64,000 bases of DNA from Piedraia hortae CBS 480.64. Lineage: Eukaryota. Positions within the stretch are counted from its first letter, which is position 1, and each line of letters opens with the position of its first letter. Both the position numbers and the translations under genes were made by a program. The notes under the pieces are model-generated. The model was not told the DNA's origin, did no database searches, and saw only the letters and a list, made by a program, of their open reading frames with translations. The stretch is taken from NCBI GenBank assembly GCA_010093745.1, contig MU005964.1, forward strand, positions 1 through 64,000, read 5' to 3'. This document shows, piece after piece, positions 24,166 through 27,476 of the stretch.

Positions 24166-24945
24166 ATGCCACCAAATAGACGCTTCCGTGGCCTTGGCCT
24201 GATTGTCCTTTTAACCCTGTTCATCATCTTCTACCTTTCCAGCGGGCCCAAATCTACCCAAAACTCGCGCTTCTACACCCGCACCGTTGATGCTCTCAAA
24301 CATCGCCAAGAAGCCGGTGCGCGACAGCACGTTATTGAAAAGGAGAAGCAGCGGCTGGCTCGCGTTGAGCAGTTGCAAAAGGAACACGATGTCGCCATAT
24401 CTGCTCTCAAACCAGGCGCACTCGCCACAGAAACGCCGAAACCCGTAGCCGGGCGTAAGATAATTCCCGGCGAACGAATCGTTCAGACGAGACCGGCCCA
24501 CGATGACAACGATGGTGTAGCAAAAGTTGGCAACGTAGAATCCAAGCCTTCCGGGCCAGCAAAGAAAGGCTCGGTCGAAACCGAAGAGGATCATCGCGTG
24601 GAAGAGGAACTAAATGACATTCTCAAGAAGAGTCCCATTATAATCTTCAGCAAGTCGTATTGCCGGTTCAGCAAAAAGGCCAAGCACGTTCTGCTGGACT
24701 TGTACAACATCACCCCCGCGCCCTACGTCGTCGAGCTGGACAAGCACGAGCTCGGCTCATCCCTACAGAGCGCGTTAGGAAAATCGACTGGCAGACGGAC
24801 CGTTCCCAACGTTCTCATCAATGGCAAATCAATCGGCGGCGGAGACGACGTCGAGGCTCTCCATACAAGCGACAGGCTCATCAGCACAGTCTCGTCGATG
24901 GGCGGAAAGCGCGTGGAAATTCACAAAAAAACGACGACAAGATGA
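24166..24945 (+). CDS. Secretory-pathway monothiol glutaredoxin (Grx6/Grx7-like)
   Basis: N-terminal signal anchor. C-terminal Grx domain IIIFSKSYCRFSKKAK..PYVVELD..TGRRTVPNVLINGKSIGGGDD. Confidence 0.9.
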   Translation: MPPNRRFRGLGLIVLLTLFIIFYLSSGPKSTQNSRFYTRTVDALKHRQEAGARQHVIEKEKQRLARVEQLQKEHDVAISALKPGALATETPKPVAGRKIIPGERIVQTRPAHDDNDGVAKVGNVESKPSGPAKKGSVETEEDHRVEEELNDILKKSPIIIFSKSYCRFSKKAKHVLLDLYNITPAPYVVELDKHELGSSLQSALGKSTGRRTVPNVLINGKSIGGGDDVEALHTSDRLISTVSSMGGKRVEIHKKTTTR

Positions 24946-25229
24946 GGGCTGAGGTCAAGGCATGAGTGTATGATACCCCTAATTCGATTCGCCTAGCGAT
25001 GTGCATGTAGTCTTCAAAAGTGTTTGTTGTTCCCCATGCTGCCAGACCGTTACGATATTAATCTGCGAACAAGCAGAATATGTATTGCAGCCAAAAAAGG
25101 TTAGCGTGCCACGGTTCTTGTTCCGCGGAATGCACACTCTTATTTTTTTTTTTCCGCCGTTCAACCTATTGCAAACAATCCTCCGACATGTCTCGGTCTC
25201 GGTAAGTGCTCCCCTTTGCCATACATAAC

Positions 25230-25303
25230 ATGATGCGAACTTTGAACAATCCAAATCCTATAGCATCGTGAAGGACTCTATGCAAACTCTAGAATTACTC
25301 TGA
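25230..25303 (+). ncRNA. Box C/D snoRNA 1 (predicted guides: 18S A159-equivalent and 25S A-loop G2917 region)
   Basis: C box ATGATGC, D box CTGA. CTCTAGAATTAC complements 18S GUAAUUCUAGAG (+5 = the human Am159/SNORD45 site). TGAACAATCCAA complements 25S UUGGAUUGUUCA. Confidence 0.8.
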
Positions 25304-25438
25304 CCTTTCCCTACGTCTGCAATCCTGACGCGCGGCGAAGACTGGCTGACTGCGTGCAGTGATCGTTGCAGTGCCTGATAAGAAGCAGGCTCTGCGAGAT
25401 GATATTGCAAAAGGTAAGCAGACTTCCCCCTCCCTATC

Positions 25439-25518
25439 ATGATGATACCTCGACAAAATGGCATTCCTCGATCTGAATTATACTGTCGAACGTTGTCAAT
25501 AGTTTCAGCCTTGTCTGA
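25439..25518 (+). ncRNA. snR41: Box C/D snoRNA 2, snR41-like (18S Gm1126) with a second guide to the 18S ~1572 region
   Basis: ATGATGA..CTGA(D')..CTGA. AGTTTCAGCCTTG complements 18S CAAGGCUGAAACU (+5 = G1126). GGCATTCCTCG complements CGAGGAAUGCC. Confidence 0.85.
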
Positions 25519-25597
25519 TTTGTTCCTCTACTACTAAGATGACTTGCTCAAGAACATGCTAACTGTCATCAGGTAAGCGCCCTCTGCTGGTCCCGCG

Positions 25598-25705
25598 ATG
25601 ATGAATTCCACAACGCAACGGGCGGTCAGAGCACACTCCCCACCATCGAGACTTACAACCTCGAACGTCGGGTGGGGTGTTGTTTGTTGAGAACGCGTTG
25701 ACTGA
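25598..25705 (+). ncRNA. snR70: Box C/D snoRNA 3, snR70-like (18S Cm1639)
   Basis: ATGATGA..ACGGGCGGT-CAGA(D') complements 18S ACCGCCCGU (+5 = C1639). Long internal hairpin CCCCACC..GGTGGGG, terminal CTGA. Confidence 0.85.
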
Positions 25706-25785
25706 GCGCTGTCATGCACTTTTTTAGTGCGTCCACGTTCATGGCTGACCTGGTCAGAGGTATGTAACGTTCTCATCTGCTCCGC

Positions 25786-25849
25786 ATGATGAAAGCATTT
25801 TGTTGTGGAACGGTTCGCCGTTATGAGCCACGTACACTGAAAATTCTGA
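25786..25849 (+). ncRNA. snR51: Box C/D snoRNA 4, snR51-like (25S ~U2729 region)
   Basis: ATGATGA..ACACTGAAAAT-T-CTGA complements 25S AUUUUCAGUGU. The order snR41-snR70-snR51 matches the known yeast cluster. Confidence 0.78.
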
Positions 25850-26031
25850 TTTAATGAGGTGTGTTTGATGTTGCTGCCGAATGCGAATGCGAATGCTGAC
25901 TGGTGTAGCCTGATGCGTTATTGCCACCCTGTTTCCGTCTCAGCCGTGGACGATACTGACTCTGTATCAGAACAGACGGCAATGGAGCATGGATAATATC
26001 TCAAAGGTAGGTGGCTCTCCCCACCCCGAAG

Positions 26032-26088
26032 ATGACGACGAATACATCTGTCTGCAACCTCTTTGAAGACTGAAATCAAAATCTCTGA
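26032..26088 (+). ncRNA. Box C/D snoRNA 5 (25S ~U2724 region, snR67-like target area)
   Basis: C box ATGACGA, D' CTGC, C' TTGAAGA, D CTGA. AAATCAAAATC complements 25S GAUUUUGAUUU. Confidence 0.7.
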
Positions 26089-26167
26089 TTCAATCGCTAT
26101 CAAGACATTCATGGATGCGGACGTACTGACTTTAATAGGGTGCGTTTCTTTCTCATTGCTACATACG

Positions 26168-26239
26168 AGGATGACAAAACCAATTTTCGCTGTGTTCTTG
26201 CCGAGCGCCGCGCTGAAGATATCTACCTTGGAGAACTGA
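26168..26239 (+). ncRNA. Box C/D snoRNA 6 (predicted guides: 5.8S A43 region and 25S site equivalent to human Cm2824)
   Basis: C box AGGATGA, D' CCGA, D CTGA. TTTCGCTGTGTTCTT complements 5.8S AAGAACGCAGCGAAA with one G:U pair. ACCTTGGAGA complements 25S UCUCCAAGGU. Confidence 0.8.
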
Positions 26240-26294
26240 TCGTCGAATTACCAATTGCCGAAGATGTCCTGGAACCGGCTAACTTTTGCAGCAA

Positions 26295-27476
26295 CTAGAT
26301 ATCCAAGCCATTTGTAACCTCGATATACTTTTCAAACTGTCTTAGAGCTTCACCAGAATCAATGCACTCCCTGGCCAACCTCGCTCCTTCTTTCCATCGT
26401 AGTCCCCCCGGCCCTCTCTCTTTGATCTTACACGTGTTATCATCCTCTGGTAAACCACTGATGGTTAGTAAAGCAGCCGTATTCAGCAGCACAAACTGTA
26501 GCACCGGATCGTTGGGATCCAGCTCTCCCTTTAATATCCTCATCAGCAACTCCGCATTCTCATCCGGGCCCTTTCCGCCCTCCACCTCAGTCAAAGGAAA
26601 CGTATCCAAGCCAAAATCTCTCGGATGAAGATTAAACCTTTCTATCCCATTCCCATCATCAATAAACCAGCAATCCGTCCCTCCCGCACACGAAATCTCA
26701 TCCAACCCCTCCTCTCCACACACAACCAACGCCTTCCTCGCCCCGGACAACCTAACCGCCTCCGCAAAATCTCCCCCCACCTCCTCCCTCGCAACGCCCA
26801 CAACCCTCGCCTCCACGTACTCCTGCACCGGATTCGCCAACGGGCCAAGCAAATTAAAAATCGTCCTAACAGGAACCTCCCTCCTCGTAGCCGCCAAATG
26901 CTGCAGACCAACATGCCACTCCCTCGCATACAGAAACGCATAATTACACCCCTCATAAACCCTCGCCAAAGTCTCTGCCCTCACGGCCTCCAGTCTCGGC
27001 GCACGAGGCACCACACGCGCCAACAGATCCGCGGACCCAGAGAGCGACGTCGACGAATTATTTCCATGTTTCCCGACCAAGAGCTTTGCGCTCGCGCAGA
27101 TGCTGGAGGTGGTGGAGATGTTGAACGTGTTGTGTCCGTCCCCGCCTGTGCCCACAATGTCGACTAACCCTCCCTTGTATCCGCCACGGGAGAGGGAGGG
27201 ACGCTTCGCGAGGAGGGTGGTGCTCAACGCTCCTGGATCAGGGTGTTCGCAGGCGGAGAGGAGCGATGCTGCGCACGAGTTTAGGACCGAGGGGGAGTGG
27301 TCTAATCTCGTTGTATGGAGGGACCAGAGGAGCAGAGCTGTCTGAATCGGCGAGACGCGGTTGTGGAGGATTAGGGATATTGCCGCGGAGATTTCGGATG
27401 ACAGATCGTTTCTTGGGGAGGTTGAGAGGGTTTTTAGCAGGGGGGAGATGGATATGTATCCTTCCGTGGAGGGCAT
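26295..27476 (-). CDS. TRP4: Anthranilate phosphoribosyltransferase
   Basis: VDIVGTGGDGHNTFNISTTS, KHGNNSSTSLSGSADLL, RTIFNLLGPLANP, GLDEIS. First ATG at 27476. Confidence 0.96.
   Translation of the reverse strand: MPSTEGYISISPLLKTLSTSPRNDLSSEISAAISLILHNRVSPIQTALLLWSLHTTRLDHSPSVLNSCAASLLSACEHPDPGALSTTLLAKRPSLSRGGYKGGLVDIVGTGGDGHNTFNISTTSSICASAKLLVGKHGNNSSTSLSGSADLLARVVPRAPRLEAVRAETLARVYEGCNYAFLYAREWHVGLQHLAATRREVPVRTIFNLLGPLANPVQEYVEARVVGVAREEVGGDFAEAVRLSGARKALVVCGEEGLDEISCAGGTDCWFIDDGNGIERFNLHPRDFGLDTFPLTEVEGGKGPDENAELLMRILKGELDPNDPVLQFVLLNTAALLTISGLPEDDNTCKIKERGPGGLRWKEGARLARECIDSGEALRQFEKYIEVTNGLDI

Follow-up and report, generated by a model that had tools for sequence, protein, structure and literature searches.

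Can an exon of no length at all be part of a working gene? The question is raised by nine nucleotides in the genome of Piedraia hortae CBS 480.64, at positions 25570-25578 on the plus strand of the window, meaning the whole stretch of DNA analysed here (64,000 nt; NCBI GenBank assembly GCA_010093745.1, contig MU005964.1, positions 1 to 64,000). The acceptor CAG at 25570-25572 is followed at once by the donor GTAAGC at 25573-25578, and the preliminary description of this DNA, which had placed the acceptor of its intron 2 directly against the donor of its intron 3, was right in both letters and coordinates. The upstream intron, here called intron I, begins with aag/GTAAGC at 25414 and has a branch motif GCTAAC at 25558-25563, with its branch A at 25562, 10 nt ahead of the intron end; the downstream intron II has a GCTGAC branch with its A at 25748 and ends in an acceptor CAG at 25755-25757. 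At 25572/25573, a 3′ splice site abuts a 5′ splice site and is preceded by a branch point of its own, an arrangement expected of recursive splicing at a zero-length exon. The two introns are 159 and 185 nt long, the distance from 5′ splice site to C box is 25 nt in both, and the D box ends 44 nt (intron I) and 43 nt (intron II) from the branch A, a geometry that agrees with the earlier claim that each intron has its own branch point and its own regularly spaced C/D snoRNA. The zero-length exon at 25572/25573 is real, used and conserved.

Six units of like build, each with a donor, C box, D box, branch motif and YAG, follow one another on the plus strand from about 25200 to 26300. Across the six, the 5′ splice site lies 23-30 nt from the C box, the D box end 41-46 nt from the branch A, and the branch A 9-11 nt from the intron end. 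The features of this host gene are as follows.

25202..25359, plus strand: intron A, predicted, with a U45-like C/D snoRNA (C box 25230, D box 25300, branch A 25349)
25360..25413, plus strand: exon 2 of the non-coding host RNA, 54 nt, ending AAAAG (three RNA contigs end or join at 25413)
25414..25572, plus strand: intron I, 159 nt, with snoRNA Afu_455 (snR41-like) at 25435-25520 (branch A 25562; Rfam match; GT..AG joint in RNA)
25570..25578, plus strand: zero-length exon, acceptor CAG abutting donor GTAAGC (letters, RNA joint, related loci)
25573..25757, plus strand: intron II, 185 nt, with an snR70-like C/D snoRNA at about 25593-25710 (C box 25598, D box 25702, branch A 25748)
25758..25759, plus strand: 2-nt exon AG (kept in the spliced product)
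25760..25970, plus strand: intron III, 211 nt, with an snR51-like snoRNA at 25783-25858 plus 25909-25917 (branch A 25959; RNA joint 25759/25971)
25859..25908, plus strand: nested intron B, 50 nt, splitting the snR51-like snoRNA between guide and D box (RNA joint 25858/25909)
25971..26006, plus strand: exon, 36 nt (one RNA contig)
26007..26138, plus strand: intron with a fifth C/D-like snoRNA at about 26027-26090 (branch A 26129; RNA joint 26006/26139; geometry)
26139..26139, plus strand: possible 1-nt exon G (sequence between the acceptor TAG and the donor GTGCGT; RNA for the upstream splice only)
26140..26291, plus strand: intron C, predicted, with snoRNA Afu_294 (U55/SNORD39-55-like) at 26167-26242 (branch A 26282; Rfam match)

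At the second junction of the array, the letters CAG AG GTATGT (25755-25765) permit an exon of either 0 nt (GAG/GT) or 2 nt (CAG/AG/GT). This second 'missing' exon is read as the 2-nt AG because a spliced RNA contig keeps the AG. Intron III is itself interrupted by intron B (GTGTGT...TAG), which has its own GCTGAC branch and lies between the intron III donor, 99 nt away, and the branch A at 25959, 51 nt away. The D box of the snR51-like snoRNA (25910-25913) is available only once intron B has been removed, a terminal stem of 4 bp (CGCA/TGCG) flanks the snoRNA boxes only with intron B out, and the D box end comes to lie 46 nt from the branch A of intron III only if the D box is the one at 25910-25913. 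The preliminary description had ended its intron 4 at 25908; an RNA joint places that acceptor at 25970, and 25859-25908 is the nested intron. The donor that it had put at 26008 for the fifth unit actually lies at 26007. In the spliced host RNA, with its ends chosen arbitrarily, the longest ATG-initiated open reading frame spans 88 aa; comparable hosts in the literature are non-coding.

Towards the 3′ end of the array, the letters TAG G GTGCGT (26136-26145) suggest a 1-nt exon between the intron of the fifth snoRNA and that of Afu_294. In the other loci with a U55-like motif, the upstream stretch resembles, by eye, an ordinary exon-donor junction. Shortly upstream of the first donor at 25202 there is a pyrimidine tract with a run of 11 T (25137-25157), which may be a promoter or start-site feature.

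The RNA evidence comes from one public run, taken as Logan contigs and mapped on 24900-26500. The label of the run as RNA was a guess; it matches 65% of the sampled words of 24400-26700, eight of eight contig pieces are at least 99% alike to the window with no differing letters, and the run contains spliced RNA of the same organism because five joints have GT..AG ends. The intermediate junction for which the preliminary description had proposed a search, 25413/25573, is present in one RNA contig of 217 nt and depth 109.5, which skips 25414-25572 with GT..AG ends and continues through intron II to 25759. By joining 25413 to 25573, this contig bears out the prediction that loss of the upstream intron regenerates a donor. 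The joint falls in an 8-nt direct repeat, as is inherent to a regenerated donor. No contig lies inside intron I, which this joint bridges, because the listed contigs reproduce the bin depths exactly.

Another contig, 58 nt long at depth 58.6, joins 25413 to 25969 with ends GT..TC and no ambiguity. Because the joint is canonical only if so read, it consists of exon 2, the AG at 25758-25759 and the sequence from 25971 onward. This contig represents the product of complete splicing, from which introns I, II and III are gone and in which the AG is kept. The joint 25759/25971 (skipping 25760-25970, GT..AG) has a depth of 46.9, and intron III was removed in a contig with the last ~28 nt of intron II still attached. 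Because intron III can leave before intron II, a strict 5′-to-3′ order fails for the array as a whole. The joint 25858/25909, which skips 50 nt, occurs in a 219-nt contig of depth 75.7 that retains 25730-25858, and intron B had been removed there with intron III still in place. The joint 25572/25758 was not seen in this one run of contigs, an assembly form that drops rare species.

The joint 26006/26139 (skipping 26007-26138) is carried by a 1356-nt contig of depth 212.3, the one contig over 26140-26291, a stretch that is unspliced in it. Joints for intron A and for 26140-26291 were not seen in the contigs of this one run, which hold no evidence against their splicing; contig coverage leaves out 25008-25277, and the host 5′ end and intron A lie outside the RNA data. 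The 1356-nt contig continues past 26500, and the region 26300-27400 and beyond appears by eye to be a minus-strand gene; as the contigs are unstranded, two overlapping convergent transcripts may explain this contig. On the other side, a contig of 3044 nt and depth 850 ends at 24981 and presumably marks where the transcript of the upstream gene, with an open reading frame ending near 24943, has its 3′ end.

To find related loci, metagenome contigs were scanned for the 18 nt at the D-guide end of Afu_455, with any letter allowed at one position. At least 106 stretches matched; among the matches listed, 97 were unique and 61 had a C box 50-85 nt upstream. An abutment was scored where, 40-115 nt past the D box, GTR followed a YAG without a gap and a branch motif lay 6-42 nt upstream of that YAG. 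Among the matches listed, an abutment was found in 55 of the 61 loci with a C box and in 5/35 matches without one; shuffled controls gave a mean of 0.37 and a maximum of 3 of 61, and the reverse complement gave 0/61. At 80% identity, the 55 loci form 45 clusters; over this stretch, the locus nearest to the window is 61% identical to it, both figures applying to the matches listed. When the sequences were parsed by the first AG after the branch, a gap of 0 resulted in 47/62 (window included), and inspection by eye showed that, in most of the rest, it was a later AG that adjoined GT. Tiny exons were found by eye at the same place in a few loci (5 nt in L003, 4 nt in L010 and in L066, about 21 nt in L030; the first three are among the six exceptions) and may represent a series of exon shrinkage.

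The nucleotide at +3 of the abutting GT is A in 55/55 loci among the matches listed, and the search criterion did not fix this A. Such uniformity, for which another explanation is hard to find, argues that the abutting GT serves as a donor. Ahead of intron I, the exon ends in AAG/GT in 51/55 loci among the matches listed. The rest of the array is also recognisable: the second junction is YAG/GT in the 27 loci parsed among the matches listed, a guide-like element of snR70 type (RYGGGCGG) lies in the second intron in 51/56 loci, and a nested intron after the same guide motif could be parsed in 20/56, the window being included in both counts. Rfam searches of 20 related loci placed Afu_455 above its gathering threshold in all 20, found Afu_294 downstream in 15 (13 above gathering), and found snR51 between the two in 3/20 (50.7-57.2 bits, gathering 44).

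The locus is very probably 'cluster III', a polycistronic snoRNA host of fungi, in its Pezizomycotina form, from which an exon has been lost and which is spliced stepwise. Pezizomycotina is suggested by the layout of the cluster and by the derivation of the matching Rfam families from Aspergillus. Its order would be U45-like, snR41-like (Afu_455), snR70-like, snR51-like, one further snoRNA and U55-like (Afu_294). The spliced RNA would be non-coding, and the output that matters would be the snoRNAs, a single C/D snoRNA from every intron excised. Between the snR41-like and snR70-like introns, the exon would have been lost, such that the CAG ending at 25572 came to meet the GTAAGC at 25573. Intron I (25414-25572), the removal of which is seen in RNA, would leave first; the conserved exon end would then meet 25573 and regenerate a donor, a state seen as an RNA species. 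The donor at 25573 would be used in a second step, with intron II (25573-25757) probably leaving as a lariat of its own. The next exon appears to have shrunk to the 2-nt AG that is seen in the product, and the snoRNA of intron III would have to lose nested intron B, the joint of which is seen, to gain its D box. Each snoRNA lies about 43-46 nt before its own branch point, in keeping with the proposal that each intron forms its own lariat. A fixed distance between D box and branch point fits the splicing-coupled assembly of intronic C/D snoRNPs, with one snoRNA per intron.

A different account of the same RNAs would have the donor at 25414 work alone, pairing with the acceptor at 25572 or with that at 25757, with the 25413/25573 RNA as a side product and both snoRNAs sharing one 344-nt lariat. 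Two snoRNAs in one lariat would require an endonuclease cut between them. The spliced end product is the same either way, as taken alone it fits a single splice from 25414 to 25757 equally well; the intermediate could be a dead end; and in related loci G at +5 is missing from most of the abutting donors. The part of Luo et al. (2013; PMC3596301) that deals with splicing itself offers one donor with three acceptors as an alternative. Yet a GT follows the acceptor in 55/61 loci, with A at +3 in 55/55 (among the matches listed), and only use as a donor would select for this; the donor in the window is a strong GTAAGC; and the donor at 25760, behind the 2-nt exon, works with intron II sequence attached, which shows that a donor can function here behind no real exon. 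A single working donor is accordingly held to be improbable. The two introns might instead be independent tandem introns removed in either order, with CAG 25570-25572 serving as the end of an upstream 'exon' when intron II leaves first. Out-of-order removal does occur at the next junction, both donors in the window are strong, and two pathways to the same product are described for the Candida parapsilosis group in the relevant passages of Donovan et al. (2016; PMC5033589). Against this stand the absence from the run of a 25572/25758 joint, allowing for the loss of rare forms from contigs, and the count in Luo et al. (2013), as given in the portion of that paper on ESTs, of 0/42 ESTs with a later intron out while intron I was kept. 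Removal in either order is very improbable at this junction.

The joint might also be an artefact, if template switching or mis-assembly over the 8-nt repeat produced 25413/25573 and the abutment were a chance motif. The 8-nt ambiguity at this joint is of the kind that reverse-transcriptase template switching could exploit to mimic a deletion, and the bare motif is at chance frequency: both strands of the 64-kb window together contain 8 copies of YAG/GTRNGY, while 100 first-order Markov simulations average 10.9, and the motif is by itself not above chance. With a branch motif 4-30 nt upstream, 4 sites are found against 1.04 simulated. The contig depth of 109.5 exceeds the 58.6 of the final product, however, the skipped segment has canonical GT..AG ends and a branch site, the abutment is kept across 45 sequence clusters (among the matches listed), and the same intermediate is present in ESTs of other species in the portion of Luo et al. 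(2013; PMC3596301) cited above. An artefact is extremely improbable. The site at 25572/25573 stands above chance because of its snoRNA context, its RNA joint and its conservation, and not because of the bare motif. The three other sites in the window with a branch motif and YAG/GT (minus strand, 61730, 57163 and 9091) have no snoRNA context and are regarded as chance occurrences.

The names of the snoRNAs within this host differ in their basis. Rfam searches of the window, taken to E 10, gave Afu_455 at 25435-25520 (57.4 bits, gathering 48) and Afu_294 at 26167-26242 (51.2 bits, gathering 43); over the latter region the SNORD39 profile scored 24.7 bits (E 0.011). For snoRNAs 1, 3, 4 and 5 the same search, with E up to 10, returned no usable family name in the window: the U45-like snoRNA had a partial, weak match to SNORD45 (E 9.6), and the matches to ceN89 (snoRNA 3, E 5.7), snR67 (snoRNA 4, E 0.34) and SNORD19 (snoRNA 5, E 8) are at chance level. 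A match to CRISPR-DR60 (E 0.38) was set aside as noise. The guide elements appear to be complementary to conserved 18S regions. Afu_455 is called snR41-like from gene order and from the place of Neurospora crassa CD9 in cluster III, not from a match to an snR41 family; in the portion of the N. crassa report that covers it (PMC2780460), the cluster contains CD17 (U45), CD9 (snR41, 18S-Gm1122) and CD6 (snR51). The name snR70-like is likewise taken from the gene order in the cluster III passages of Luo et al. (2013; PMC3596301) and not from a family match.

The cluster, its mode of splicing and its stepwise intermediates are already known in fungi, in work published from 2010-2013 onward. In the sections of Luo et al. 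(2013, PLoS One 8:e58547; PMC3596301) that concern it, cluster III is snR41-snR70-snR51 with an intron-intron-intron arrangement in all Euascomycetes, flanked by U45- and U55-associated introns and with a non-snoRNA 'intron B' inside snR51. The same sections report at least 61 exon losses, count 42 ESTs of the cluster (intron I out in 18, I and II out in 14, all three out in 10) and propose stepwise 5′-to-3′ splicing. At the P. hortae locus, an snR41-type snoRNA lies in the first of three introns and the snR51-like snoRNA is split by intron B. The U55 side of the cluster is matched by Afu_294 at 51.2 bits, and the U45 side shows the weak, partial SNORD45 match (E 9.6). The first interior exon measures 0 nt, and the second 0 or 2 nt by its letters, with AG kept in RNA. 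In those sections of Luo et al. (2013), the likenesses extend to gene order, a zero exon between snR41 and snR70, intron B within snR51, the departure of intron I first and a non-coding host, and the position of intron A here agrees with their 'intron A'. Compared with the same sections, three points differ: the second 'lost' exon is here a 2-nt AG kept in the product (exon sizes were not compared species by species), an extra snoRNA intron (26007-26138) precedes the U55-like intron, and, unlike their ESTs, one contig here has intron III out before intron II.

Comparable hosts are known from other fungi. In the passages of Donovan et al. (2016; PMC5033589) on Candida snoRNA polycistrons, classical, nested and recursive splicing (with exons of zero length) are described together with one-base exons, and cluster III of Debaryomyces hansenii is stated to require recursive splicing between snR41 and snR70; later papers cite Mitrovich et al. 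(2010, Science) for Candida and Yarrowia. By those passages, the polycistrons of the Candida clade, Debaryomyces and Yarrowia resemble the present locus in the zero exon between snoRNA introns, the regenerated donor, the one-base exons and more than one order of removal. They differ in belonging to Saccharomycotina, in a TACTAAC branch site and in other details of the clusters, such as a G common to two introns (PMC5033589). The portion of Chen et al. (2018; bioRxiv 10.1101/226894) on the Schizosaccharomyces pombe host SPNCRNA.445 (snoRNA61) describes a zero-length exon found by spliceosome profiling. There, too, a 3′ splice site adjoins a 5′ splice site in a snoRNA host intron and is kept among relatives; the catalytic ends (5′-P, 3′-OH) were mapped directly in S. 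pombe, whereas here the site is known from contig joints on the exon side. As far as parts of PMC2780460 and PMC3596301 describe them, mammalian hosts of the UHG/GAS5 type share the non-coding character, the single C/D snoRNA per intron and the fixed branch distance, but keep real exons between their introns.

Stwintrons, defined in PMC8469720 by an internal intron that breaks up a splice signal (donor, branch element or acceptor) of an external one, share with this locus sequential splicing and two introns in one exon gap. The preliminary description was correct to set the locus apart from them: every intron here has its own intact GT, branch motif and YAG, and it is a snoRNA, rather than a splice signal, that intron B breaks up. 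Animal ratchet points, as in Drosophila Ubx and others, divide introns of tens of kb and have strong consensus donors. The acceptor-donor composite and the regeneration of the donor after the first step are common to both. The pieces here are, in contrast, 159-211 nt, their likely purpose is to give one snoRNA per lariat, and the regenerated donor has no G at +5 in most relatives (among the matches listed). The earlier statement that ratchet-point splicing is mainly known from very long animal introns, a subject for which Chen et al. (bioRxiv 10.1101/226894) cite Georgomanolis 2016, needs correcting, as relevant parts of the literature also describe it for this fungal cluster (PMC3596301), for Candida (PMC5033589) and for S. 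pombe (bioRxiv 10.1101/226894).

The donors of the related loci fall into two patterns. At the first donor, which follows a real exon end and was taken as the last AAG/GT at least 12 nt before the C box (a rule that may mis-assign some), G at +5 is found in 46/51 and A at +3 in 29/51 among the matches listed. The abutting donors, among the matches listed, have G at +5 in only 10/55 at junction 1 and 10/27 at junction 2, and A at +3 in 55/55 and 26/27, respectively. The Fisher p for first versus abutting donors is about 1e-14, with lineages that are not independent. The window is exceptional in having strong donors at both junctions (GTAAGC and GTATGT), and it also shows intron III leaving before intron II. 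It is conceivable, though doubtful, that donors of zero-length exons form a class of their own in which donor strength sets the order of removal. If so, a weak donor that worked only once an exon end arrived would enforce the 5′-to-3′ ratchet seen in the ESTs. A literature search, which for Luo et al. (2013) covered passages of the text, listed no paper that proposes this.

As a discovery, the locus carries little weight, since its architecture, its spread in filamentous ascomycetes and its stepwise intermediates are in print for the same cluster. The observation at 25572/25573 is confirmed, its interpretation as recursive splicing is supported, and the same thing is known for this cluster. 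The finding is of use in annotation: gene callers will draw neither exons of 0 or 2 nt nor a snoRNA that needs its own intron removed, and therefore, as happened with intron 4 of the preliminary description, it is easy to miss or misdraw the host gene together with three of its snoRNAs.
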